DNA from: a virus
Taxonomy: Duplodnaviria > Heunggongvirae > Uroviricota > Caudoviricetes
Strand: one strand, 5' to 3'
DNA length: 64,000 nucleotides
IMG/VR virus record: IMGVR_UViG_2886837984_000001
Span: 1 to 64,000 of that record
Shown here: positions 5,922 through 62,826 of the stretch, in pieces
How the letters are laid out: each line of letters starts with the position of its first letter
Numbering within the stretch: the first letter of the stretch is position 1
The notes under the pieces: model-generated
Seen by the model: only the letters and a program-made list of their open reading frames with translations
Told to the model about the DNA's origin: nothing
Databases searched by the model: none
Made by a program: the position numbers and the translations under genes

Positions 5922-6083
5922 TCAGACCACCTCCGATTCAAAGGTGAAGTCTTCGACCTTTTCGAGCTCGTCTTTTACGATATCGAGTTGCTCTTTGATC
6001 TCCGTGTTGCATTTGTGACCGGCTTTCTGAAGCTCTGCAAGAACCTCAAGGAAGCGGAGTCGGTAGTTTAATTTTTCGTTCAT
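5922..6083 (-). CDS. Hypothetical small protein, 53 aa: MNEKLNYRLRFLEVLAELQK...
   Basis: ATG at 6083 with GGAGAG upstream. Its stop lies 1 nt before the ATG of the next gene. This is the first gene of the leftward operon. Confidence 0.35.
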   Translation of the reverse strand: MNEKLNYRLRFLEVLAELQKAGHKCNTEIKEQLDIVKDELEKVEDFTFESEVV

Positions 6084-6104: not shown

Positions 6105-6190
6105 GTATGTTCTAATGTTAGAATATATAAGTTCTATAATTAGAAGATTAATGTTCTAACGTTAGACTATTTATGTTCTAATGTTAGAAT
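6105..6190. promoter_or_regulatory. Array of four palindromic sites, TGTTCTAA-YG-TTAGAAT, spaced about 22 bp apart. A candidate operator array upstream of the leftward late operon.
   Basis: Three near-identical copies at about 6106, 6152 and 6174, plus a degenerate TTCTATAATTAGAA at about 6133. They are read directly from the sequence. Confidence 0.45.
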
Positions 6191-6200
6191 TTTGTTTGCA

Positions 6201-6247
6201 AAAAAAAGACTCGCCCTAGTCCGCATCGTTGATAGGCGTGGCGAGTT
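6201..6247 (-). terminator. Putative rho-independent terminator on the minus strand.
   Basis: GACTCGCC and GGCGAGT arms are followed on the minus strand by a U8 run (A8 on plus, 6200 to 6207). Confidence 0.35.
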
Positions 6248-6364
6248 CATGTCTAATTCAATTGCGGAGAGGTCTCCCTAACCGCTTTAGTCCGGGTGTG
6301 GTACAGGACTTTGCTCTGGTGTCGACGAATCGACATGATAGTAGAATCGAATGAAGGGGAGTTT

Positions 6365-6462
6365 GTTGGCCAGGTTTCCCACACCTCATTAGAGTTTTTT
6401 AGCCAGGTGTCTAATCACCTCTCGAATTTTATTTAGCCAGGTGTTTTGCCACCTCACGACAT
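6365..6462. promoter_or_regulatory. Three copies of TTAGCCAGGTGT-N5-6-CACCTC, an inverted repeat AGGTG/CACCT, at a spacing of about 31 bp.
   Basis: The copies sit at about 6369, 6401 and 6433. The palindromes GAGGGTTGACCCTC and GACGTC...GACGTC follow. Confidence 0.35.
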
Positions 6463-7114
6463 TCGATTCTAGAAAGGTGAGGGTTGACCCTCATGATAAA
6501 ATGGCGCCTTTATTGGACGTCAAAAATGAAAATATAACGCCTGAAACCAAAAGTGACGTCCCACGTAGTTGTGGCTTTTTCGTCAGGTTGCGAACCTGAT
6601 CCGGTGATAATTTGTCCGCAACGAGGCAGGACGATGTATGCACTCAATTGTGCGGTGCGCTAGGCACAAAATATAAAGACCCGACGAGGTTCGCTTCTAT
6701 GCTAGGCGTGTCGGGTTCCGGTAAATCAAATAAGACCCCAAAGGGTCGTGACAAATTTCTTTGCCACCAAATTGGTCTTTACAAATCAAATTTGCACCAC
6801 TTAAGGCGCGGGTTATCCAAATGAGGACACCCTCAATATAGAAGGCTCGAAGTGTTTCGCATATTCAGAGGCGTTTTCGAACTACTGTTCTAAAAAATAG
6901 ATGACGCCCCGTCTACGCCTTAGGGGGATAGCTTTCGTAGCATTGTTTTCCTTTTTTCAAAGCCGCTACGCCGGAGCAGGTTTCATCTCTAACCCGCTAG
7001 TTTTGAACACCCATTCGCCCACACAGCCTTTTGTCCGAAGTCTCGTTGACAGTCGATTGGATCGATACAAGATGACCTTCGGGGGTCTGAGTAGGAATTC
7101 TGGATGCCAAATTT

Positions 7115-7668: not shown

Positions 7669-8099
7669 CCTTTTCTCTTTTATTGGTTTTTAGCGCTCAA
7701 ATCAGCCTTTTCTAAGGCTAGAACTAAAAATAATCCGCGCACACCTATCTTTCAAGGCGGCGCAGATGTTGGTCGGTCAGTCCGACCTGCTTCGAAATCT
7801 ACCTAGCTAGGTTGCTGTCTTTCTGTTTTTAACGTGGAGCTCGGCTGCACCACTATTAAGTTGTGTGTGATCTTTGAGGGTGGCCGCGCGATAAGCACGA
7901 CCAATTCCCTTGTGATGCGGTATGAATAGTTGCCCGCTCTAACCGAACTCTGCGAGCCGTCTGCGCATGACAGTTTTCCTTGAGACGACGGATTTCCGAC
8001 CCAATGTCGTACTCTCCTCAGACACATAGCCCTACGCATCTGCGCCCATTCTCAAAAGTGGCTAATCCTTCGAGAATCGCGGTATGTATGATTTATGAT

Positions 8100-9350
8100 T
8101 TACAACTTGTTCGCAAACATCTTACATGTCTCAGAACGCTCATCTTGCGTGAGCACCACAATCGCACATTGCGGATCGCCTTTAAGTTTGTTCACGGCCT
8201 CGATGATGCCCGAAGATTTCACGAACGCATCGTTCGTTTGAGCGAAGTCGCCCGTAAAGACGATCTTCGAATCCTTGCCGACACGCGTACCACAGTTTCG
8301 AATTTCTTTTAAACTCAAATCCGAACACTCGTCCACCAAGATCAATGTCGAATCCATCGATAAGCCTTTGACAAAGCTGATTTCGTGTTTCGTGAGCTGT
8401 CCGTTCTCCGACATATGTACAGGGTCTTGGATAGGGTCGTCTAAATGTTGTACGAAAGTCTCGTAGAACACGCCCATCTTCTCGTCCATGTCGCCAGGTA
8501 GGAATCCGACGCTCGATACATCTGCTTTACGCATGAGTGCGATCCGACCAAAGTCGCCTTTTCGAATCGTTTTCTCTTGCGCCATCTTCACCGACATCAT
8601 CGTCTTGCCTGAGCCAGCCAATCCTAAGATGAATACCGATGTGATATCCGGGTTGTTCAAAGCATCCAACGCACAAGCTTGTTCGGCGTTACGCGGTTTG
8701 ACGACACGATATTCGGGGAGTTTGATTTCCACGAACGACTCGCCGTTCCAACGTCGCACCATCTCTTTGAATTTCTGTTGTGACGGGTCGTCGATGATAA
8801 CATATTGGTTGATCTCCAACTTCATCTCATCTGCCACCGTCTTGTCGTCCATCCATACTCGGTCGATCAACTCTGCTTCCACGTCATCGTTCGGGTCGAG
8901 TTTTGTATATCCCTTGTATGAATACACATCCGTCGACACTTGCTGAAGCTGTTTTACTTCGACTCCGAATCCATGCGCTTGAATCCCGAGCAACATATCT
9001 TCCGTAATCAATCCGTACTCAGGGTTTTGAAGCAGACACTCTAAGAATTGGTTGTCCACATACTGTTCATCATATTCGCCGTGTTCAAGTAGCTTGTTCA
9101 ATCGATAAGGTTTCGTGTTGTACTCGAGACGGTCTTGATGTAACGTCAACCAATGCTGTGCGACACGCGCACGATAGGCTAGGTCACTCGACCGTGACGA
9201 CTTGTGTTTCTCGATCTCTCGTAAAAGCATGGTCGTCACGACGACCTCATTCGGATTCAAGGCGCTGATGTTATTCAGCACCACATTCGTATCGACTACA
9301 AACTTCTTCATCTTCGTTTCGGTCGTCATCATGTTATCCCCGATCATCAT
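8100..9350 (-). CDS. phoH: PhoH-like ATPase with an N-terminal PIN domain, the PhoH2 or YlaK type.
   Basis: PIN motif KKFVVDTNVVL. PhoH Walker A GLAGSGKT and LILVDECS. Confidence 0.8.
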   Translation of the reverse strand: MMIGDNMMTTETKMKKFVVDTNVVLNNISALNPNEVVVTTMLLREIEKHKSSRSSDLAYRARVAQHWLTLHQDRLEYNTKPYRLNKLLEHGEYDEQYVDNQFLECLLQNPEYGLITEDMLLGIQAHGFGVEVKQLQQVSTDVYSYKGYTKLDPNDDVEAELIDRVWMDDKTVADEMKLEINQYVIIDDPSQQKFKEMVRRWNGESFVEIKLPEYRVVKPRNAEQACALDALNNPDITSVFILGLAGSGKTMMSVKMAQEKTIRKGDFGRIALMRKADVSSVGFLPGDMDEKMGVFYETFVQHLDDPIQDPVHMSENGQLTKHEISFVKGLSMDSTLILVDECSDLSLKEIRNCGTRVGKDSKIVFTGDFAQTNDAFVKSSGIIEAVNKLKGDPQCAIVVLTQDERSETCKMFANKL

Positions 9351-9822: not shown

Positions 9823-11274
9823 TTATGAATTCGAGCATTTCTTACAAATTGTTCGGAATCCGTCTTTTGAAGATGTGTTTTTCTGGAAATAACGGTCGTT
9901 AGAGATCAGCTTTGTCTCTCCGCACTTCGTACACGTCTTGTATTTTCCTTTGAGTTTGTGCGTGTACACATGCTCGTCGACCTCTTCAAGATACGTCTGA
10001 TGGACTTTCTTCGGAATCGAAGAGTTGACCATGCGGTTGATTACCACGGTCGACAACCCAAGCTTCTCGGCCACGGACGATTGTGTCTGCGCGTCGATCA
10101 GGAGCGAGCACACGTCACGCTCTTCCGTCGTGAGTGGTGCTTTGTCCAGGAGTCGCTTGAATTCCCATAAGAGCCAGTACCAATCAGACGTATAGTTCCC
10201 GTCGTACTTGTCCCATAGCTCGGCATACATCGTGAGGAGCGGTCGGTACGTCTTCAAGTCGCCAAGCGATATGGCGTTCGTAGACACCTCGACGATCTCA
10301 CCGTCTTCCTTCTCGTAATATGTATTCGAGTTGATGTCGTACACCGGTTTACCGGCGTCAGGGGAGAGTGTGACCGTCTTGACGAGTTGACGCTTCATGA
10401 TCTCGTACTCACCTTTGACGCTCGAGTACGTCTTCCGAAGAAGGTTGTACTGTCGCTCGGGCGTGAAGTGTTTCGGCAACTCCTTGCCCTCAGACTCCTT
10501 CTCGATCGCCTTGATCGTGTTCTGTCTGATGATGTCCTGCATATCCTTCGTCTCGTTCACGCCGAGATAGTAGCGCATGTAGTCGATGTCGCGCTTGAAG
10601 TCCTCGAACACCTCTTGCTGCGTCGTCACCTCGCCGTGGTAGAAAGGGATCTCGTTGCCTTTCTTGTATGTATCCCAATAGGCTTCATCAAGATACTCAT
10701 CCGCCAACTTGAAGGACGAACGCTTACGCTTCATATCCAACTTCTGTTCGCTCGTGAGCTGCGTCTTGCCTGTCGCCTCTAGGACGGAGAAGTCGTTCGT
10801 GAGGACTTCGTGAGCGGTATCCGTGACACGCTTCATATAGTCGTACTCACGGGGGCGCTTCTGGAACACATGGTCTGTGCTCTCTGACAGTGATTCTAAG
10901 AATGCACGTTCCTGCTCTTCGCTATCGAACTTCGTGAACAGGATGTAGTCCGCAAGCGTCGCGAGTGTCTTGTCTAGCGTCTGGTCTTCCGAAAGGAATG
11001 ATGACGCCTTCTTGTGCTCCTTGATGATCGTGCGTTCGGCCGACATGATGTCCTCGAGGAAGTCTACCTCTCCCAATAAAGAGGAGACGAGCTCGTTTCG
11101 CTCTTCCCCGTACTTCGAGAGGTAGTTTAGCTTCGAGTGGACGAGTTCGCGCAACGCCTGGATGTCGCCTCGTTCTTCGAACGGGCTGTCACCGAAACGC
11201 ATTCCCTCGAAACGCTTCGGCAGTTCCATCCCGTCGATGATGATCGTTTCTACTTCTTCACGCACGACCAGCAC
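9823..11274 (-). CDS. Putative transcription regulator. It has a sigma-70 region-4-like HTH near the C-terminus and a C-terminal Cys4 zinc ribbon.
   Basis: LTTEERDVCSLLIDAQTQSSVAEKLGLSTVVINRMV is sigma region-4-like. The zinc ribbon is CTKCGETK...CKKCSNS. Confidence 0.6.
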   Translation of the reverse strand: MLVVREEVETIIIDGMELPKRFEGMRFGDSPFEERGDIQALRELVHSKLNYLSKYGEERNELVSSLLGEVDFLEDIMSAERTIIKEHKKASSFLSEDQTLDKTLATLADYILFTKFDSEEQERAFLESLSESTDHVFQKRPREYDYMKRVTDTAHEVLTNDFSVLEATGKTQLTSEQKLDMKRKRSSFKLADEYLDEAYWDTYKKGNEIPFYHGEVTTQQEVFEDFKRDIDYMRYYLGVNETKDMQDIIRQNTIKAIEKESEGKELPKHFTPERQYNLLRKTYSSVKGEYEIMKRQLVKTVTLSPDAGKPVYDINSNTYYEKEDGEIVEVSTNAISLGDLKTYRPLLTMYAELWDKYDGNYTSDWYWLLWEFKRLLDKAPLTTEERDVCSLLIDAQTQSSVAEKLGLSTVVINRMVNSSIPKKVHQTYLEEVDEHVYTHKLKGKYKTCTKCGETKLISNDRYFQKNTSSKDGFRTICKKCSNS

Positions 11275-13836: not shown

Positions 13837-13896
13837 TTTCGTTCTTTATTTCTATATAAAATATACCATATCTAAATCAAAAAGTAAAGCGTCTTA

Positions 13897-13931
13897 GGGG
13901 TTGACACGAAATCAAAAAATATGGATAATAA
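13897..13931 (+). promoter_or_regulatory. Sigma-A-like promoter: TTGACA, a 17-nt spacer, then GATAAT. It lies upstream of the recombinase gene.
   Basis: GGTTGACACGAAATCAAAAAATATGGATAATAA. The spacer carries the recurring AAATCAAAAA box. Confidence 0.45.
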
Positions 13932-13968
13932 AGTTATCAACAACTAAGCATAAGGGAGCGGATCGACA

Positions 13969-14988
13969 ATGGAAGCCATCAAAACAGTAGCGTTGAACAC
14001 GACAAACATTCAGAGCAATATCCGATTGTTCTTAGATAAGAAGGGGCTCAACTCCGATCAGACACGACGGGCATATGAGCGAGATATCGAGGAGTTCTTC
14101 ATCTTCTCGAAGAACAAGGCTGTCTCCGGTCTATTGGAGTCAGACGTATCGTTCTCGCCGCAAGACGTCGACAAATATCTCGTCCATCTGTCGGAGAAAG
14201 GGACTGCCTCGTCCACGATCAATCGTAAAGTCGTCTCTGTACGCTCTCTGATGCGCTACCTTGACCGCTTGGACGGATATGACATCAACTTATCGGCGTT
14301 CGATACCGGCTCTGTGAAGGGCGCTCAGAACTCGTATGGGGTGCTCACGTATGAAGAGACGGAGATGATGGCGAGCCGTGTCCTGTCTCACCGTAACGGT
14401 CAGATGAAGGCCGCCCTCATTCGTTTGGCCGTGGTGACGAGTTTCCGCTTGGATTCGCTCTTGCGATTGACGAAGACGGACTTTATGAATCAGCGAGGCG
14501 TGTGGACGGTGACAACGGTGGGGAAGGGCGGAGAACGTGATACGAAGGCTATCCGTGACGAGTTGTACGAAGAGATCCGCATGATCATGATGTTTAAAGA
14601 GGACGATGAGCCGATCTTCAAATTGTCTCCTGGGACTGCGTTGAACATGGTTAAGGGTCTGTCTGAGGAGATGGGGGTTCCGAAAGAGCGCAATATCACG
14701 TTCCACTCGCTGAAGAAGGCCGGTGTGACAGAGGTGTGGGTGCAGACGGGGTACGACGCTATGAAGACGAAGAAACAGGGGGCGCACAAGAACTTCTCTA
14801 CGACAGAGCGGTACATCGAGAACAACGAAGACTTCTCGCAGTCACAGAGCCTCTTGATCGGAAAAGAGATTGACTTGTCTATGTTGGACGGGCTGTCTAA
14901 AGACGAACTGCTCGAGTTCATCAACGGCATGAACCGCAGCGTGAAGATGCAGATCAAAAATGAGATCAAGAAAAAAGGGATGGCGTAA
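13969..14988 (+). CDS. Tyrosine recombinase or integrase, XerD/phage-integrase family.
   Basis: N-terminal core-binding region TRRAYERDIEEF. Candidate catalytic R in VVTSFRLDSL. HSLKKAGVT. The C-terminal motif is GAHKNFSTTERY. Confidence 0.75.
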   Translation: MEAIKTVALNTTNIQSNIRLFLDKKGLNSDQTRRAYERDIEEFFIFSKNKAVSGLLESDVSFSPQDVDKYLVHLSEKGTASSTINRKVVSVRSLMRYLDRLDGYDINLSAFDTGSVKGAQNSYGVLTYEETEMMASRVLSHRNGQMKAALIRLAVVTSFRLDSLLRLTKTDFMNQRGVWTVTTVGKGGERDTKAIRDELYEEIRMIMMFKEDDEPIFKLSPGTALNMVKGLSEEMGVPKERNITFHSLKKAGVTEVWVQTGYDAMKTKKQGAHKNFSTTERYIENNEDFSQSQSLLIGKEIDLSMLDGLSKDELLEFINGMNRSVKMQIKNEIKKKGMA

Positions 14989-15004: not shown

Positions 15005-16369
15005 TTATACAGAGAAGTCGTACAGCTTGCCGAGCGCTGACTTCTTCTCGATTTTTCGTTTCATTCTCAAGTGAAGAGGCTTAGGATTCGAAAGGTAGAA
15101 TTTGTCTACGTTACCGATCACCTCGGAGTGTTTGCCGCTGATGACGTCTCGAAAGTACGCACCTTGCTTAAGGGAAGATGAATAAATTTCAGCAGCACTA
15201 GACCACTCCCCTCCCATCTCATTCACCTCTTCAAGCTTTGCGTCTTCTATTTTGAGAAAGTTGTTGAATTTGTCCGAAATCTTTTCAGATCGATTTTCGA
15301 TTGCAATCTTTTTGTTCTTCTGAAACGATTCAAGAATTTCTAGATACTCACCATCGCGCTTTTTGCCTGAGTAGTTTTCAATAAGCAGTTCGGCCGATTG
15401 TTTTGGGTCGCAAAACGGAAGAATTTTTTTCTTGATATATTTGATCACCGTCGGAGGCGTCGCCTTCATGTAGAAGCTTTGCTTTTTGTAGACGTATACG
15501 ACTTGACGAGGACATCCGTCTGGATCAGGGTCTAGTACCGTCTTCATAGCCTCTTCGATATCTTCTTTACATTTATCAATTTTTTCTGCCTTATGCTTGT
15601 TGTTGTATTTGATGTCGCTATATGTAAGGTCGTTATCTACAATCAATTTTCTTCTTGTTGACAGAACTTTCCCCATTTCTTCTGCGGTAATCGCCTGATG
15701 GATAGATCCGGTAGGTTCGTACTCGACGAACAATTCTCCGTTCTCATCAATGTACTGGACTTTTTCGTGCTTGATCACAAGCGCCCAATACTCATCTAAA
15801 CTGCCAATGATTTTTGATTTCAGTAGTCGGTTGAAAGACGACTCCATGTTTCTACGGACTGTGTCGTGGAAATCGATGTAATCACTAAACACCTTGTTTT
15901 GTCCTGCCTCGATCACGTTCTCGTCGATCAGATCGTCAATCTGCATCTTCTTATGAGATTCATCGAAACGGCTCAGATAGGCGTCGTGCATACTTCTCGT
16001 CGCAATACCCATCTCGACCATCCATGACGCTACGGTTCTAGGTCTAAACGCGCTTGGCGACTCAGTACCTTCAAGATACCCGATGATAGCCATATCTAAG
16101 TCGTAGCTATAAGGTACGCGCATATTACTCCCGTTAAGCATTCGGTCATCCTGTCTGTCGGAAACCTCGCTCTTTTTACCTGACAGTCGGTAACAAATAG
16201 ATCTTCCTTCTTTGACTCGTTCTACATTAGAGTAATGTTGTTCGAGCGTTTTGAATAAAGACTCCTCTACTCGTTTCGATGTAAATCGTCGATATTTATT
16301 GAAGTGATCTTTCTGAGGTTTAGTACCATACTCTTCTACGGCCTCTCTCTTAGATAGAACTTTAACCAT
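15005..16369 (-). CDS. Hypothetical protein, 454 aa.
   Basis: It is a long K-rich ORF with an RBS. It converges on the recombinase gene, and its start abuts the AT-rich palindromic region. Confidence 0.7.
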   Translation of the reverse strand: MVKVLSKREAVEEYGTKPQKDHFNKYRRFTSKRVEESLFKTLEQHYSNVERVKEGRSICYRLSGKKSEVSDRQDDRMLNGSNMRVPYSYDLDMAIIGYLEGTESPSAFRPRTVASWMVEMGIATRSMHDAYLSRFDESHKKMQIDDLIDENVIEAGQNKVFSDYIDFHDTVRRNMESSFNRLLKSKIIGSLDEYWALVIKHEKVQYIDENGELFVEYEPTGSIHQAITAEEMGKVLSTRRKLIVDNDLTYSDIKYNNKHKAEKIDKCKEDIEEAMKTVLDPDPDGCPRQVVYVYKKQSFYMKATPPTVIKYIKKKILPFCDPKQSAELLIENYSGKKRDGEYLEILESFQKNKKIAIENRSEKISDKFNNFLKIEDAKLEEVNEMGGEWSSAAEIYSSSLKQGAYFRDVISGKHSEVIGNVDKFYLSNPKPLHLRMKRKIEKKSALGKLYDFSV

Positions 16370-16436
16370 ACCCTCTCCACCTTTACTTAAATGTTAAATT
16401 AATGATAACATAAATACTTTTTTATTTCAATCTTCT

Positions 16437-16710
16437 ATGTAAAGCAATTCTTTGTATATGTATTTATAATAGGCATATCTTCTATATACAAGGATTTGCT
16501 TTACATTTAAAAACGCTCTATTCTTTTCCACTCAGCGTTCTGTTTCACAGAAGCGCTTCGTGTACTCAATTCGCTACGCTCATTTCGTTATATTTTTATT
16601 TTTATAGTCAATTATCTATATACCATATAGGTTTTTATGTAAAGCAAATCTTTGTATATATAAAACAATTATATATATATCTTTCTATACAAGGATTTGC
16701 TTTACATAGA
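16437..16710. repeat. Two direct copies of a 70-bp palindromic element. The arms are ATGTAAAGCAA(T/A)TCTTTGTATAT and TATACAAGGATTTGCTTTACAT, around an AT-rich 24-nt spacer.
   Basis: Copy 1 is about 16439 to 16508 and copy 2 is about 16633 to 16707. A further inverted repeat, TTATTATCTAT...ATAGATAATAA, lies at 16893 to 16930. The region is AT-rich and sits at a strand switch. Confidence 0.5.
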
Positions 16711-16961
16711 ACTTAATTAATCAATACTCAAATAATCATAACCAGCGAAACGAACGTAGTGAGTGTAGCACCCGAACTCTTTTTCGTCAGAAAAAGATGA
16801 GGGGTACTCTCTTTATAATAAGAATCCGATAATATGAAGATTAATGATCGACTTGATTGATTGAAATCAAAAAGTATTATATAATATAGAGGTAGAGGAT
16901 TATTATCTATTATAGTAATCGATAGATAATAATCAATCATAATCGATAGGAGTGAAGGGTA

Positions 16962-17495
16962 TTGAGAGTAGCGTTGATCGGTAAGATGAGAAGCGGGAAG
17001 TCTACCATCGCAGATCTGTTAGAGGAGTATTTGGGATATCAGAAGTTGTCATTCGGAACTCGTCTGAAGCAGTTCGCTCATGAGGTATTCGATGTGGATA
17101 GCGATGTGAAGCCACGAAAGCTGTATCAGGATTTCGGTCAGAAGGCTCGAGAGATCGATCCAGACGTTTGGGTGAAATGGGTCGAGCGAGATATGGGAGA
17201 CAATCAGTTGGTTGTCATCGATGATCTTAGGCAGCCGAATGAGTATGAGTGGGCGAAACGAAACGGGTTCATCTTGTTTCATGTGAGATGTTCCGACGAG
17301 GTTCGGTTGATGAGAATGAAGAGCAAGGGTGAGGATGTCGATCCGAAGCTTTTGAATCACGAAACAGAACGACATATTGATGAATATACATATGATTACA
17401 TATTAGACGGCGAGGTATCACCGCTAGAAAGCTACCAGGCGATCAAGTGGCTAGAAGCATACGGCGATAGTTTGAGCGGTTTGAATTCTAAATAA
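16962..17495 (+). CDS. P-loop nucleotide or nucleoside-monophosphate kinase-like protein.
   Basis: TTG start with AGGAGTGAAGGGT upstream. Walker A GKMRSGKST. LVVIDDLRQPNE resembles Walker B. Confidence 0.6.
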   Translation: MRVALIGKMRSGKSTIADLLEEYLGYQKLSFGTRLKQFAHEVFDVDSDVKPRKLYQDFGQKAREIDPDVWVKWVERDMGDNQLVVIDDLRQPNEYEWAKRNGFILFHVRCSDEVRLMRMKSKGEDVDPKLLNHETERHIDEYTYDYILDGEVSPLESYQAIKWLEAYGDSLSGLNSK

Positions 17496-20717: not shown

Positions 20718-21020
20718 TAGTTGGTTTCATATGAAACAAAACAGAGATTTAGCGAAAGACGCTTGACAATCGAAATCAAAAAGTATATATTGTAATTAAG
20801 AGGTAGCGGAAACTACCTAAAAATTCATATGAGAATATGAATGATGTACTAGTATCGTACATACGTTTCGTTTTTCATGAGACGACCGCTCACTCGTTGC
20901 CATCGATAGCGGTCTGATCATATGCCTCCCTAGAGGGGTGAAGAGAGGTGTGATTCCTTTCGGGCATACCATACATACCGGATGTTTTTGTGACATTCAT
21001 GATTTACCTCCTCCTTTCGG

Positions 21021-21057
21021 AAAGACCGTCTCCCTTACAGGACGGTCTTTTTGTTTG
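21021..21057 (+). terminator. Rho-independent terminator.
   Basis: AGACCGTC tcccttacag GACGGTCT followed by TTTTTGTTT. Confidence 0.6.
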
Positions 21058-21148
21058 GATAAAAACACACCCCCCTCTCTAGATTAAATGAAAAAGTATT
21101 TTAATATTGGGAGATATAGGGTATGATAAGAGGGAGGAGGAGATGAAG

Positions 21149-21595
21149 ATGTTTTTGATGTATCTGATCGGGTTGGTGTTCTTCGGGGGATTCTTGCTGC
21201 TGATGGTAGGGTCTTTTGCTAATTATATGGATTATAAACAGGAGAGCGAGATGGGTGCGAGGTTGGGTGACACTTTGAACGGCCGTCCACCGGAGAGAGC
21301 GAAGCCTGTCGTGAAGGATTGGGTTCAGGGGTTGCGTAAGCTAGGGATTGAGATTGCGGATGTGGAGACGTATGAGAGTGAGTTGCGGAGGGATCTGAGA
21401 GAGTTGATGAATGTGACGCTGCCTGAGATCGCGAAGATGGATATCGGTTTGGAGATGAAGGTTGAATATGGGGGAGTGATCAGGAGGGAAGTTGATGCTG
21501 TGATCGAGAGAGCGAAGCGAGAGAAGACAGACCGAGTAAAATCAGAGATTGACTATTTGGTGGGATATGGGTTGGGTGAGAAGGCTAAAAAATGA
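21149..21595 (+). CDS. Hypothetical membrane protein.
   Basis: RBS GAGGGAGGAGGAG. The start is probably the ATG at 21149, which is spaced better than the earlier ATGs. It has an N-terminal TM helix. Confidence 0.55.
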   Translation: MFLMYLIGLVFFGGFLLLMVGSFANYMDYKQESEMGARLGDTLNGRPPERAKPVVKDWVQGLRKLGIEIADVETYESELRRDLRELMNVTLPEIAKMDIGLEMKVEYGGVIRREVDAVIERAKREKTDRVKSEIDYLVGYGLGEKAKK

Positions 21596-22030
21596 ATGAT
21601 TTCTCTGACAGGGTAAGGGAAAAGTGAGGTTTTGGGACTCCGAGAGGGGTTCTTTTTTGTGCGTGTATTTAGGAGTCTAAAAAAGTGAGTGAGGATAAGG
21701 GAAAATGAGGGTTTTAAGAGGGATGAAATGAGGAGAGATTTTTTGATGAGTTTTTTAAAGGGGCGAAAAAGTGAGTAAGGGTAAGGGAAATTAAACGATT
21801 TGACGATAACGGATTTTGAGGGAGAAAAGTAAGGCAGGGTAAGGGATTTTATATGATTTAAACGATCTGAAAATAGGGGCAAATGGTATAGTGTGGGGTT
21901 GGGGTTTGTGAGGGGGTTTGGGTATCGAATCGGAAAAAGGAGATATATGGATTTTGATATCGCTATAGGGGGAGGGGAGAAATGAAATTTGATATATGAG
22001 GGAAAAAGATGAGGTGTGGATTTGTAACTA
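21596..22030 (+). repeat. Strand-biased degenerate tandem repeat tract, purine-rich and almost C-free on the plus strand. It carries GGGTAAGGGA and AAAGTGAG units and a G4-like run.
   Basis: GGGTAAGGGA occurs three times and AAAAGTGAG(G/T) three times. GATTTTGAGGG is a further unit. GGGGTTGGGGTTTGTGAGGGGGTTTGGG has four G-tracts. The overlapping minus-strand ORF is a translation artefact. Confidence 0.5.
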
Positions 22031-34143: not shown

Positions 34144-35370
34144 GTGGAGACGATGGTGAACGAAGATCTAACCCCGCAACGTTTAGCAGAAGTATTGCAA
34201 GATTTTCTGTACGAAAACCGTTATGATCATGATTTATTTAATGATTTACAAAAGAATTTGAAAAAACATGAAATATTTTCTAAAGATATTACAGATATTA
34301 TGAATAAAAGAACAGATTTCAAAGATATTCCTGCCACCGAGCTCGTGTTGTTTGCGCGGATTGTGTACGGCCGCTTTCCCGACTTCGAGATCATCAATCC
34401 GCAACGCTATTTCAAGCCAGGAGAGATCAAGGCGGCGCAATATTATACCCGCAACAATCGTCCTGAGTATATCAAACTTCCTTTGACAGTGAACAACGCA
34501 TTAAGCGTCCAGTACGACGAGTATATCGCCATCATGTCGGCCAAACAGCTCGTCAAGATGTTGGATAGCAGCATTGTCACCTACAACTTCGACTCACAGC
34601 GCGACGCGAAGAGCATGGTGGACACGAACGGAAGAATCGTGAGAGCGATCAACGTCAACCAAAAGTCGGTCATCGAGATCGCGCAACTGATGTTGAACGG
34701 AGAATATCTCCCCGATATGCTGACATTTAATATGTTGTTAGGTTCTAATGACGAAAGAGAAGAGTTTTCCTCTAAAGGAAACAGTATTGTCGTCAACGAA
34801 GGGACTCAGCTCGACATCTTGGACGGATTCCATCGTCTGTCTGCCATGCAGCAAGCGGTCGAAGCGAATCCAGAATTCGACTTAAACTTCCCTGTCGCCT
34901 TTAAAAACTTTGATATCCAAAAAGCGAAGCGCTATGTCGGTCAAACGAACACGTTTAACGTCATGCCTAAGGCGTATGTCGAGCAACTGAGAGCCAAAGA
35001 CCACTACGCATACATCGTCAACGAGCTCATCAACAACAGCGACCTGAAGGGGCGTGTGGGGTATCAGCGACGCCCAATCTTCGACAACGGAGAGATCACT
35101 ACGTTCGACCGTCTAAAGAATGCCATTCAGAAACAGTATAACGTCAAGATGAAACGAGAAGCGATGGGTGTGGTGGAGACACTTGTCCCGTTGTTCGATG
35201 AATTGATTTTCCTATACCTATCAGAGAAACCTGATCCACATGAAACATTGTTTGCTACGGTCGACGGGATAGATCGATTGTTAAATAAATATAAAAAGAT
35301 TGATAAAGATATAAAACGTGTCGATTTAGATTTCTTATTAGCCACAACAGAAAAAGGACAATTATTATGA
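34144..35370 (+). CDS. ParB/Srx-fold (ParB N-terminal domain-like) nuclease-domain protein.
   Basis: The LDILDGFHRLSAM motif is of the DGxHR type. 408 aa. RBS AAGAGGTGGAG. Confidence 0.5.
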   Translation: METMVNEDLTPQRLAEVLQDFLYENRYDHDLFNDLQKNLKKHEIFSKDITDIMNKRTDFKDIPATELVLFARIVYGRFPDFEIINPQRYFKPGEIKAAQYYTRNNRPEYIKLPLTVNNALSVQYDEYIAIMSAKQLVKMLDSSIVTYNFDSQRDAKSMVDTNGRIVRAINVNQKSVIEIAQLMLNGEYLPDMLTFNMLLGSNDEREEFSSKGNSIVVNEGTQLDILDGFHRLSAMQQAVEANPEFDLNFPVAFKNFDIQKAKRYVGQTNTFNVMPKAYVEQLRAKDHYAYIVNELINNSDLKGRVGYQRRPIFDNGEITTFDRLKNAIQKQYNVKMKREAMGVVETLVPLFDELIFLYLSEKPDPHETLFATVDGIDRLLNKYKKIDKDIKRVDLDFLLATTEKGQLL

Positions 35371-36431
35371 CAAACTTAGAGAATTTTGAAACCAATAAGC
35401 AAAAATTATTAGATGATGACCTATTTTATAATGCAGAATATAAATTAGATTTCTTAGACAAACATAAAACCAAAACACAGGATTTTAATTTTTACTATCG
35501 ATTATTTATCAACGTAAAAGAAAAAGAAGAAAGCCTTGGTCGTGATATGTACGACTTCTCTCGTCGTGATATCGAGGATGTCGTGTCGGGGATGCACCCG
35601 TCGACCTCTTCTGCTGCCGCCAAAATCATCGCAATGATCAAGCGATACCTGACTCACGCGGCACAAGACGGCGAAAAGAGTTCAAATATCGTTCACCAGG
35701 TAGGCAAATTGACAGATATGGCGAATAGTTTTCTTCCTAGTAATCCGAAATTCTATGTGTCAGAAGCAGAATTACAATTATTAGAAGATAGCTGTATGAA
35801 TCCGCAGGACGCATTTATCTTCCGGGCGATCTTCGAAGGGGTTTTGGGGGCTGAGATGACCGAGCTACGCAACCTAAAGATGAGCGATATCGATATCCAT
35901 CAAAATTTAGTCTCAATCAATATAGCTGATTACAACAAGAACCGGACAATCCGAGTGACAGAGCGATTTATTGATATGGCCGTAAAAGCATATGAACAGA
36001 AAGTATATATATTAAATAATGGCGAAGACGTCAGCGAGAACTTCATGCGCGCAAACACAGAATACGAGTTAGAAGATTCGGGATACATTATGAAGAAGTC
36101 GCATATTGGACGTATGATCAAGGATGCTCCGATTACGACGCCGACGCTATACAAACGATTTAATAACATCAAGGCGTTTCAATCATTCGAGACGATCGAT
36201 AAATATTACTTGAAATTCAACAACATTTATAAGAGCGGTGCGATCTGGTATGGGGCTCGTTATATAGAAGAAAAGCAGATAGCAATCAAGAAACTGACGG
36301 ACGATCATATGAAAGAGGTGGCTCGCCACGTCAAGAACGTCTATCAAGATCTCCCGGTAGATATCAAGAAGATCGTGAACGTTGAGAATATCGAAGAGTT
36401 ATATGTGGAAAAAGGGAAGATTATTTCGTAA
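35367..36431 (+). CDS. Hypothetical protein.
   Basis: 354-aa ORF, coupled to its neighbour. A weak tyrosine-recombinase-like box (LGAEMTELRNLKMSDID) lacks the catalytic Arg, so no product call is made. Confidence 0.55.
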   Translation: MTNLENFETNKQKLLDDDLFYNAEYKLDFLDKHKTKTQDFNFYYRLFINVKEKEESLGRDMYDFSRRDIEDVVSGMHPSTSSAAAKIIAMIKRYLTHAAQDGEKSSNIVHQVGKLTDMANSFLPSNPKFYVSEAELQLLEDSCMNPQDAFIFRAIFEGVLGAEMTELRNLKMSDIDIHQNLVSINIADYNKNRTIRVTERFIDMAVKAYEQKVYILNNGEDVSENFMRANTEYELEDSGYIMKKSHIGRMIKDAPITTPTLYKRFNNIKAFQSFETIDKYYLKFNNIYKSGAIWYGARYIEEKQIAIKKLTDDHMKEVARHVKNVYQDLPVDIKKIVNVENIEELYVEKGKIIS

Positions 36432-42330: not shown

Positions 42331-43389
42331 ATGGACTATCGTTCGGTAAAACAATACATATTCGACAACGAGTTGATCGAGAACGTGTTAGAAGGACTGG
42401 AATGCGAACACATCCGACCAGAACAGGGAGGACAGCTATTCGTAGCTAGGCTCCCTGAACGGTTCGGCTCAAAGAACCGGCGAGCGGTGCAAATACGAAA
42501 CGTCGTCGGGTTGTATGCGAACGTCCGAAACCGAAACCTTAAAGGCGACATCTTTCAACTGGTGGCCGCCTTACGGTTCGACGATTGGGATGGCAGTTCG
42601 GAAGGCTTGTCTAGCGCAATCAGATGGCTCTCAGAACGATTCGGTATCGTCGACGGTATCGAGATGTCGGATAAGCGCGTCAAGAACGACTGGCTCAAAC
42701 AACTTGGCTCGAGCCGCAAAATCCACGAAAACGACAAGCTACCGTTGCACATCATGAACCAATATGTGATGAAACCGAACAAATGGTGGATCGACGAGGG
42801 AATCTCGTACAAGACGCAAGTCGAGTTCGATGTCGGCTTCGATCTCGAGAGCAGACGCATCATCTTCCCGGTTCATAACGAGCAGGGAGATTTGATCGGT
42901 GTGAAAGGCCGTCTCGTCCACTACGAGCGAGAAGAGGATAAGCAGTTCAAATATCTCTACCTTCACGCCTGTAACAAGTCGATCGAATGGTTTAACCTTC
43001 ATCGGGCGTTGCCGTTCATCGAGGAGAAGAGACGGGTCATCATCTTCGAGGGTGCGAAATCTTGTATGTCGGCTTGGTCTTCGGGGATTAAGTATACGGT
43101 GTCGATCGAAGGGGATTCGGTAACAGACGCACAGGTCAAGAAGCTTCAGAAACTACCACTTGATACCGAGTTCATCGTTGCGATGGACAAGGACAAGGAC
43201 GAAGAGTATGTCAGGGGAATCGCAGCACAGCTAGGAATGCGGAAGATCAGTTATGTAATGGACGACAATGGGTTGCTTGGCAAGCCGGAAGACAAGACCT
43301 CTCCGATGGACAAAGGGTGGGACGTCTTACGGACACTATTAAAAGAACGGAAGACGTATCGAAAATCAATCACATCCAAAGGAGCTTAA
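42331..43389 (+). CDS. DNA primase, DnaG-like TOPRIM catalytic core.
   Basis: TOPRIM glutamate in IIFEGAKSCM. DxD in VAMDKDKDEE. It sits directly downstream of the helicase. Confidence 0.7.
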   Translation: MDYRSVKQYIFDNELIENVLEGLECEHIRPEQGGQLFVARLPERFGSKNRRAVQIRNVVGLYANVRNRNLKGDIFQLVAALRFDDWDGSSEGLSSAIRWLSERFGIVDGIEMSDKRVKNDWLKQLGSSRKIHENDKLPLHIMNQYVMKPNKWWIDEGISYKTQVEFDVGFDLESRRIIFPVHNEQGDLIGVKGRLVHYEREEDKQFKYLYLHACNKSIEWFNLHRALPFIEEKRRVIIFEGAKSCMSAWSSGIKYTVSIEGDSVTDAQVKKLQKLPLDTEFIVAMDKDKDEEYVRGIAAQLGMRKISYVMDDNGLLGKPEDKTSPMDKGWDVLRTLLKERKTYRKSITSKGA

Positions 43390-47005: not shown

Positions 47006-47047
47006 ATCTAAATAAAAAAGTATTTTAATTAAAAGGGGTAGATTGAG

Positions 47048-62784: not shown

Positions 62785-62826
62785 TTGAAACGCCGTCTAA
62801 ATAAAAAAGTATAGGAGATGTTTTAT

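Follow-up and report, generated by a model that had tools for sequence, protein, structure and literature searches.

The question raised by this locus is what purpose is served by a non-coding region of ~590 bp from which two gene blocks diverge, in the genome of a virus of the Caudoviricetes (IMG/VR record IMGVR_UViG_2886837984_000001, positions 1 to 64,000; we refer to this whole stretch of 64,000 nucleotides as the window). The region is bounded by ORF454, an open reading frame (ORF) on the minus strand, and by a deoxynucleoside monophosphate (dNMP) kinase gene on the plus strand. Consistent with a preliminary description of the sequence, which had reported an AT-rich strand switch at this place, GC content dips to 0.19-0.30 across 16350-16750, against 0.40-0.50 in the flanks, and the two bordering genes point away from each other. 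Within the region we found a 23-bp box in four copies, arranged in two palindromes, and a pair of inverted paralogous elements, A and B. We read the region, tentatively and with somewhat less than an even chance, as a phage-specific replication origin, the cis site of a mobile "box + ORF454" cassette. In kind, it is a variant of known control regions in an unstudied phage clade, more structured than first described. The features are the following:

15005-16369, minus strand: ORF454, of unknown family, candidate box-binding protein (initiator or regulator)
16437-16506: palindrome 1, made of box 1 (16437-16459, plus), a 24-nt spacer of 75% A+T and box 2 (16484-16506, minus)
16523-16588, minus strand: element A, 66 nt, two hairpins, the apex of hairpin 1 being GCGTAGC; 86.3 bits with covariance model (CM) R1
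16637-16707: palindrome 2, made of box 3 (16637-16659, plus), a 25-nt spacer of 92% A+T and box 4 (16685-16707, minus)
16745-16810, plus strand: element B, inverted paralogue of A, 66 nt; 69.5 bits with CM R1
16898-16934: third palindrome, with perfect 13-nt arms (16898-16910 / 16922-16934) around an 11-nt spacer; DNA fold z = -5.8
16962-17495, plus strand: dNMP kinase (Pfam AAA_18 and DNMK, PHROG 139), which opens the rightward gene block

The arms of the first two palindromes are copies of one 23-mer, ATGTAAAGCAAATCTTTGTATAT, which matches the four box positions with 0-2 mismatches and has no further match in the 64 kb; 100 shuffles of the sequence gave 0 matches. The arms of palindrome 1 are 23 nt long and 91% complementary. 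Those of palindrome 2 can be extended to 26 nt (16633-16658 / 16686-16711), 92% complementary, leaving 27 nt between them. The two palindromes start 200 bp apart, palindrome 2 lying centrally between elements A and B, and they are entries 2 and 3 in the list of short-range inverted repeats of the whole window. Compared with shuffled sequences, the fold z-scores of palindromes 1 and 2 were -7.1 and -8.7 as RNA, and -6.1 and -8.5 as DNA. A single box has an internal dyad of only 7 of 9 positions around 5 nt. The two ~70-bp palindromes in direct copy that the preliminary description reported are thus real, with the first copy misplaced by 2 nt and the second spacer being 25-27 nt instead of 24. 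The further palindrome that it put at 16893-16930 also exists, at the slightly different place listed above; it sits in the leader of the kinase operon. A search of public collections with the box pattern gave 0 matches in viral contigs, and a lone match in a Muribaculaceae metagenome-assembled genome was taken as chance.

Through homologues of ORF454 and of the kinase we obtained five independent related loci, metagenomic or genomic (L004/L005, L007, L130, L135/L136 and L131/L133), with L008 as a partial extra. Where the loci are long enough they share a common order: RecD2 (minus), a recombinase (plus), an ORF of 410-476 aa (minus), the intergenic region, and the kinase (plus). Two more distant kinase-bearing contigs (L138 and L139) were not usable, having other contexts or too little flank. 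The content of the intergenic region and the protein identities to the window are:

Window: ATGTAAAGCAA... boxes, both palindromes; ORF454, recombinase and kinase 100% (reference)
L004/L005: ATGCAACGCAA... boxes, both palindromes; ORF454 74%, recombinase 76%, kinase 85%
L007: four alternately oriented TTGCAAGGnGAATTATTGAATA boxes by the ORF, palindrome 2 of the window type (ATGTAAAGCAA...); ORF454 46%, recombinase 75%
L136: a four-box array as in L007, palindrome 2 with ATGCAATGCAA...; ORF454 47%, kinase 79%
L130: an unrelated palindrome, AAGGTAACATGTTTAA, with a 36-nt spacer, and no palindrome 2; ORF454 26%, recombinase 75%, kinase 83%
L131: ATGTAAACATAGTTG with a 34-nt spacer; ORF454 28%, recombinase 46%, kinase 62%

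The relatives carry 2-6 homologous boxes per array; in L007 and L136 the boxes are 21 bp long, and the first three start 37-38 bp apart. From one relative to another the arms change symmetrically (ATGTAAAGCAA in the window, ATGCAACGCAA in L004, ATGCAATGCAA in L136), the boxes of any one genome keeping their symmetry, and palindrome 2 is found in L004, L007 and L136 with co-varying arms. Such symmetric changes fit protein sites of diversifying specificity. The type of the gene-proximal box follows the identity of ORF454 (74, 46 and 26%), while identity remains at 75-76% for the recombinase and at 79-85% for the kinase. Since the boxes track the divergence of ORF454 and not that of the recombinase, the gene-proximal boxes appear to travel with ORF454 as a cassette. 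The third palindrome has no equivalent in L004. One side observation concerns L005, which has an IS605 OrfB/TnpB-type gene beside an HU-like gene (7686-8780), ~5 kb from the region; the window lacks a counterpart there.

The preliminary description singled out the palindromes and passed over the parts of the region that are most conserved. By comparison of the related sequences, elements A and B are the conserved core: these GC-richer stretches beside the palindromes are both present in the window, L004, L007, L130 and L136. Run on the 64 kb, the covariance model matched only the A and B copies. A two-hairpin fold is backed by eight distinct sequences. Hairpin 1 has a 2+2-bp helix with a tandem G.A interruption, closed by a G-N-A triloop, and hairpin 2 has an outer helix of 3 bp, a tandem G.A, and then a helix of 9 bp in which a single C bulges out. 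In the alignment guided by the CM, 95.2% of cells were paired and 8 of the 16 pairs showed compensatory changes on both sides, compared with 29-48% paired and at most 2 covarying pairs in a control in which the 3' partners were slid by 1-3 columns. G.U occurred in 2 of 126 cells, both in one row whose register is ambiguous. Four of the five distinct A copies have GCGTAGC or GCGCAGC at the apex of hairpin 1, and in the B element of L004 GCGTAGC stands at the apex of hairpin 2. Minimum free energy (MFE) folds do not include hairpin 1, for RNA and DNA alike. The invariant G.A/A.G steps would become C.T/T.C on the complementary strands, which suggests that A acts on the minus strand and B on the plus strand.

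No match to A or B was found in Rfam at gathering thresholds. At E <= 10, Rfam matches in the region were at chance level only (miRNA-like ones on the palindromes, and RAGATH-30 with 18 bits against a cut-off of 59.5 bits), and a tRNA scan of the window sequence found nothing. We also considered that A could be an invertible segment, lying as it does between 32-nt inverted repeats, and rejected the idea, A having the same orientation in all six assemblies. Used to scan metagenomes, the hairpin-1 pattern proved too degenerate and drew in more than 120 contigs, mainly of unrelated repeat families; with CM R1 these contigs match only over the selected 26 nt, without hairpin 2. Among these repeats, GCGAACGAGCGTAGCGAGTGAGCCACGCGAACGGAGCGCGCCGGCGAAGCGGCGCGCGAGAGAGCGTGTAGGGGAG is very abundant in soil metagenomes of 60-72% GC (loci L016, L018, L023, L025, L061 and more than 40 others), a 60-nt stretch recurs unchanged in at least 14 contigs that stem from different samples, and there are low-GC arrays of AATTACRCGAAG units. 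They have no Rfam family and are not homologues of A and B. In L131 (4690-4890) and L133 (1815-2025), where the kinase is ~60% identical, other conserved GC-richer elements occupy the matching intergenic position, with GTTA-loop hairpins (TGAGC-GTTA-GCTCA and ATATTCAC-GTTA-GTGAATAT). These may be functional analogues of A and B missed by the CM.

How could such parts work together? On the replication-origin reading, the four 23-bp boxes, in two head-to-head pairs, would be bound by a sequence-specific protein, most likely ORF454, and each pair would bracket a meltable spacer of ~25 bp with 75-92% A+T. On the exposed single strands, A (minus strand, left of the central palindrome) and B (plus strand, right of it) would then fold. 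Their two hairpins each, one of them a GC-GNA-GC mini-hairpin and both with tandem G.A by the helix, would mark where the primase or helicase of the phage enters. From the edges of the bubble, two leading strands would then start and run inward across it, in the ssiA/ssiB geometry of the RSF1010 oriV; the placement of A on the minus strand at the left and B on the plus strand at the right is the one that inward priming of leading strands would need.

Several observations are compatible with an origin, as the preliminary description had proposed: the AT-rich spacers, the boxes co-varying with ORF454, and the hairpins on opposite strands. The elements have properties of single-strand initiation signals, namely paired inverted copies on opposite strands and a conserved hairpin that includes a mini-hairpin of the GNA type. 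The reading is further backed by DnaB-like helicase and primase genes of the phage's own (the primase at 42331-43389), and we count in its favour the plasmid-like island that holds a distant ORF454 homologue (see below). Skew and DnaA boxes, on the other hand, lend it no backing. The cumulative GC-skew minimum at the region is accounted for by gene orientation alone, and no skew switch beyond that of transcription was seen. Other points weigh against an origin. Minus-strand genes to the right of the region are more negative in skew (mean ~-0.14) than those to the left (~-0.04), the opposite of a skew driven by an origin here, and the region holds no DnaA boxes. The replisome genes are 17-30 kb away, by another strand switch at 33.8-34.1 kb, and there is another iteron-like array at 6109-6190. 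L130 lacks palindrome 2, and L133 is without a long palindrome. ORF454 has no detectable similarity to any initiator in sequence, profile or fold searches, its structural model being poor. Finally, a promoter before B in L136 and L007, and a promoter-like site plus a terminator around A in L130, favour transcription of A and B.

The array at 6109-6190 consists of 3.8 tandem units of 22 bp, each with a TTCTAAnGTTAGAA palindrome, directly upstream of a small ORF (5922-6083, minus strand), and is followed at 6200-6480 by a GC-richer non-coding stretch with repeated TTAGCCAGGTGT. From its layout it looks like an operator or iteron array, a candidate for an alternative origin or a partition site.

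The main alternative is a transcription switch, for which the outer parts of the region and a motif recurring over the window are relevant:

16402-16430, minus strand: leftward promoter-like site, TTGAAA-17-TATCAT, with a perfect copy of an 18-nt motif at 16413-16430; conserved in L004
16857-16885, plus strand: rightward promoter-like site, TTGATT-17-TATAAT, with a second perfect copy of the motif at 16861-16878; conserved in L004, L007 and L130
11479-11496 (minus), 20770-20787 (plus), 47007-47024 (plus) and 62796-62813 (plus): further examples of sites of the 18-nt motif
9823-11274: sigma-like gene

The two promoter-like sites form mirror images at the ends of the region, through an inverted repeat of 20 nt (16413-16432 / 16859-16878, 95%). 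The 18-nt motif, TTGAAATMAAAAAGTATT, has 18 matches in the window with at most 3 mismatches, against 0.33 expected; where copies are intergenic, they share the strand of the gene that follows and are often found 5-30 nt ahead of a ribosome-binding site. It probably represents a phage-specific class of promoter.

If the region were a switch, which we hold possible though on the doubtful side, the boxes would be operators for divergent promoters, read by a self-regulating ORF454 or by another factor, and A and B would be outward RNAs, either 5' leaders or small RNAs. The place of the region between divergent blocks, bracketed by mirrored promoter-like sites, speaks for this, as do the inner hexamers of the boxes (TTGTAT and TTGAAT), which resemble a -35 element and for which the AT-rich spacers could supply a -10. 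In L136 a sigma-A-type promoter close to consensus, TTAACA-18-TATAAT (11/12), ends 5 nt before B, at the same place L007 has TTAACA-18-TATATT (by eye), and in the window TTTACA-16-AATACT (9/12) is found upstream of B; in L130 a 9/12 promoter stands ahead of A and a canonical bidirectional terminator behind it. The promoters before A and B are not conserved, however, with none above threshold in L004 and none for A in the window. A weak hairpin followed by TTTAT comes after every B copy (16799-16821 in the window), yet terminators are mostly absent. In the window and in L004 alike, palindromes 1 and 2 are spaced by exactly 200 bp; at about 19 helical turns, this spacing would be suitable for looping. 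Against operators for the outer promoters, the boxes do not overlap either promoter-like site as a repressor's operators would, palindrome 1 ending 7 bp upstream of the left -35 and palindrome 2 lying 150 bp from the right site. The covariation of the hairpins fits RNA as well as DNA; nevertheless G.U pairs are nearly absent, no Rfam family corresponds, and hairpin 1, with its 2+2 bp and GNA triloop and unseen in MFE folds, belongs to a type very stable as DNA and weak as RNA (PMC13037366). An origin and a switch could coincide in the region.

The preliminary description had also proposed that the palindromes are paired recombination sites for a nearby recombinase, as direct repeats would support resolution; on this reading they would resolve multimers. 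We consider this very unlikely. The gene in question is:

13969-14988, plus strand: Xer-like tyrosine recombinase, 339 aa (Pfam Phage_integrase, 1.7e-10, plus a SAM-like domain; PHROG integrase)

The recombinase is real by its Pfam match, with NCBIfam XerA/C/D matches far under their cut-offs, but ORF454 separates it from the region. In favour of the proposal, the gene is only 1.4 kb off, in conserved synteny, and the related gp19 of Tyrovirus phages has been proposed to resolve dimers of the plasmid prophage (PMC9703825), in a plasmid-like neighbourhood and without evidence for the resolution itself. The geometry disagrees: arms of 23-26 nt and spacers of 24-27 nt are found here, as opposed to a core of 11-13-bp arms around 6-8 bp, and the site proposed for another Tyrovirus recombinase measures 11+6+11 bp (PMC9703825). 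The recombinase is kept at 76, 75 and 75% in L005, L007 and L130, and yet the palindromes are altered, replaced or missing, L007 having other boxes by ORF454 and L130 an unrelated palindrome without palindrome 2. Excision between the direct copies would moreover remove A, which the relatives retain, and multimer resolution needs one site per genome where two are present. The recombinase is thus probably not the protein that reads the boxes. An explanation only slightly less improbable is that the boxes are a protein-binding array of another kind, either a partition centromere of a plasmid-prophage state or a packaging-recognition site, the hairpins being unrelated to them. Alternating inverted boxes of fast-diverging specificity are typical of centromere and incompatibility determinants, and Tyroviruses have ParM/ParG-like genes near the homologous recombinase, with a plasmid stage proposed (PMC9703825). 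Against this, no partition gene was found beside the region in the window, the terminase gene is 14.5 kb away, the contigs of relatives cross the region unbroken, and the conserved A/B pair would be left unexplained.

Two further candidates for recombinase sites were dismissed. The outer end of one box, TTATGTAAA, is presumably similar to the XerD arm of the Bacillus dif site; the 9-mer occurs 2 times in the window against 0.73 expected, and is thus not enriched. A search for an Xer-type core site beside the recombinase gene found only a sigma-A-type promoter with a 15-bp palindrome. This promoter, at 13880-13945, has the consensus form TTGACA-17-GATAAT, and its -10 overlaps the palindrome, GATAAT-N3-ATTATC. 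This palindrome, conserved also by L005, L007 and L131, may be an autoregulatory operator.

Returning to the protein most likely to bind the boxes on the origin reading, ORF454 belongs to a family with 89 representatives in a scan of 1.84 billion entries, the N-terminal ~200 aa being the most conserved part and the C-terminus variable. No match that would indicate its function was found by sequence and profile searches in Pfam, PHROG, NCBIfam and the PDB, nor with an AlphaFold2 (AF2) model and Foldseek. In the AF2 model, poor as a whole (mean predicted local distance difference test, pLDDT, 58.8), residues 1-65 (block pLDDT 67-82) form three helices and a beta-hairpin, and this N-terminal unit resembles, as modelled, a winged helix. 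ORF454 is unrelated to the 'replication initiator' of Tyroviruses (hhalign probability 0.8%), and the context of its homologues in Bacillus phage C30-2 gave no clue to function. A distant homologue, P0213, was found in the chromosome of Sporosarcina sp. P37 (L140, 4958-11555), within an island of ~9 kb between clpP and an ABC transporter. The island contains a tyrosine integrase, a GIY-YIG protein and a serine resolvase, P0213 standing between integrase and resolvase, and by its gene content it looks like a small integrative plasmid-like element. Upstream of P0213 there is a non-coding gap of 1.3 kb, in which no box array was found.

As to where the window comes from, a hypothetical protein encoded on a 121-kb contig of Exiguobacterium sp. 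SH5S4 has the same sequence as ORF454. The window has genes for a terminase, a RecD2-type helicase, a PhoH/PIN protein, a sigma-like protein, a DnaB-like helicase, a primase, RecJ and two tyrosine recombinases. The closest described phages, the large Bacillus siphophages of the Tsamsa/Thrax "Tyrovirus" group and those of the Lactococcus 949 group, share no more than 30-36% protein identity with it. We take the window as a phage-like contig of Exiguobacterium sp. SH5S4, from a large phage distantly akin to the Tsamsa-like "Tyrovirus" phages. Among 50,697 phage records and 72,556 plasmids, megablast and blastn found no similar DNA, apart from a 46-nt AT-rich match in Lak phages that we regard as chance. 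The second tyrosine-recombinase-like gene (35367-36431, plus strand, PHROG 5830) lies within the replication module, with Sak4-like, DnaB-like, primase and RecJ-like genes as neighbours; Tyroviruses have been noted for three tyrosine recombinases of such kind (PMC9703825). Elsewhere in the window, GC skew is unusually strong (+0.56) at 21001-22000, and the ORF at 21107-21595 encodes a protein of 162 aa with an N-terminal hydrophobic segment followed by a charged part rich in E, K and R.

To our knowledge, neither origins nor early control regions have been mapped in large Gram-positive siphophages, the Tsamsa/Tyrovirus-like group and its relatives in Exiguobacterium among them. The components of the locus are compact: a 23-bp box, with variants that go together with those of a single protein family (the one of 89 representatives), and a two-hairpin element of 66 nt that covariation supports and that lacks a counterpart in Rfam. 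If the region is an origin, it would bring opposed single-strand signals like those of RSF1010 to a double-stranded DNA phage, and ORF454 would gain a function; as a switch, it would be an arrangement like nut or put in a phage of Firmicutes. In either case the Xer-like recombinase should not be presumed to act on these repeats. A broader proposal, which we put forward as a possibility with the chances against it, is that A and B represent an undescribed class of paired opposed single-strand signals, whether as DNA mini-hairpins at which the phage primase or helicase enters or as leader RNAs independent of factors. Combined with a box/ORF454 cassette that can be swapped, they would make up a new origin or control architecture of a clade of large Bacillales siphophages, ORF454 then founding a new initiator-like family of DNA-binding proteins that is also present in small chromosomal islands.

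Several known systems come close to this arrangement. The left-end module of Tyroviruses contains a RecD-like helicase, the XerD-like gp19, a 'replication initiator' and YlaK (PMC9703825). The window resembles the left end of Tsamsa and Thrax in having RecD2 (~31%), the Xer-like recombinase (32-36%) and PhoH/PIN in one neighbourhood (PMC9703825), and differs in that no parM or TrwB-like cluster was seen in it and ORF454 is unrelated to the 'replication initiator'.

In the oriV of RSF1010 (IncQ), ssiA and ssiB are two 40-nt inverted repeats used by the primase RepB' (PMC8567376). Mini-hairpins of the form d(GCGNAGC) melt at 70-76 C, the RNA form being much weaker, and they recur in the G4 origin and in ssiA (PMC13037366). 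The present region shares with this oriV the paired paralogous hairpin elements, inverted and on opposite strands, beside initiator-type repeats and an AT-rich stretch, with a mini-hairpin of the GNA type within the hairpins (PMC8567376, PMC13037366) and a strand placement that would permit inward priming of leading strands. The likeness proposed is one of layout. Unlike the ssi sites, of 40 nt and one hairpin, the elements here are 66 nt long with two hairpins, and the boxes are inverted and 23 bp long in contrast to the direct 20-bp iterons of RSF1010; the host here is a Bacillales phage, and no RepB'-type primase was identified.

Origins of the oriS type in herpes simplex virus have inverted initiator boxes around an AT spacer. 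The palindromes described here are similar in their head-to-head boxes of initiator type, their short and nearly pure A+T spacer, and the capacity of the unit to form a hairpin. The lineage and the proteins are unrelated, two units stand 200 bp apart here, and binding by ORF454 is putative.

The nutL/nutR sites of lambda and the putL/putR sites of HK022 are inverted paralogous antitermination RNAs in divergent early operons, put having two stem-loops. Like them, A and B are inverted structured paralogues of ~65-70 nt, on opposite strands at the starts of divergent operons, and they flank palindromes that would be operators. They differ in that G.U is near-absent in A and B and hairpin 1 is of a DNA-stable type (PMC13037366). 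There is also no match in sequence or Rfam, and the placement of promoters is inconsistent among relatives.

Finally, the origin of lactococcal phage c2 is a non-coding, transcribed and structured segment between divergent early and late promoters. The region shares with it an AT-rich non-coding position between divergent promoters and structured segments, and has no sequence relation to it; c2 is not known to have paired inverted elements or box palindromes of this kind. Origin function and transcription coincide in c2, so the two leading readings of the present region, a replication origin and a transcription switch, need not exclude each other.

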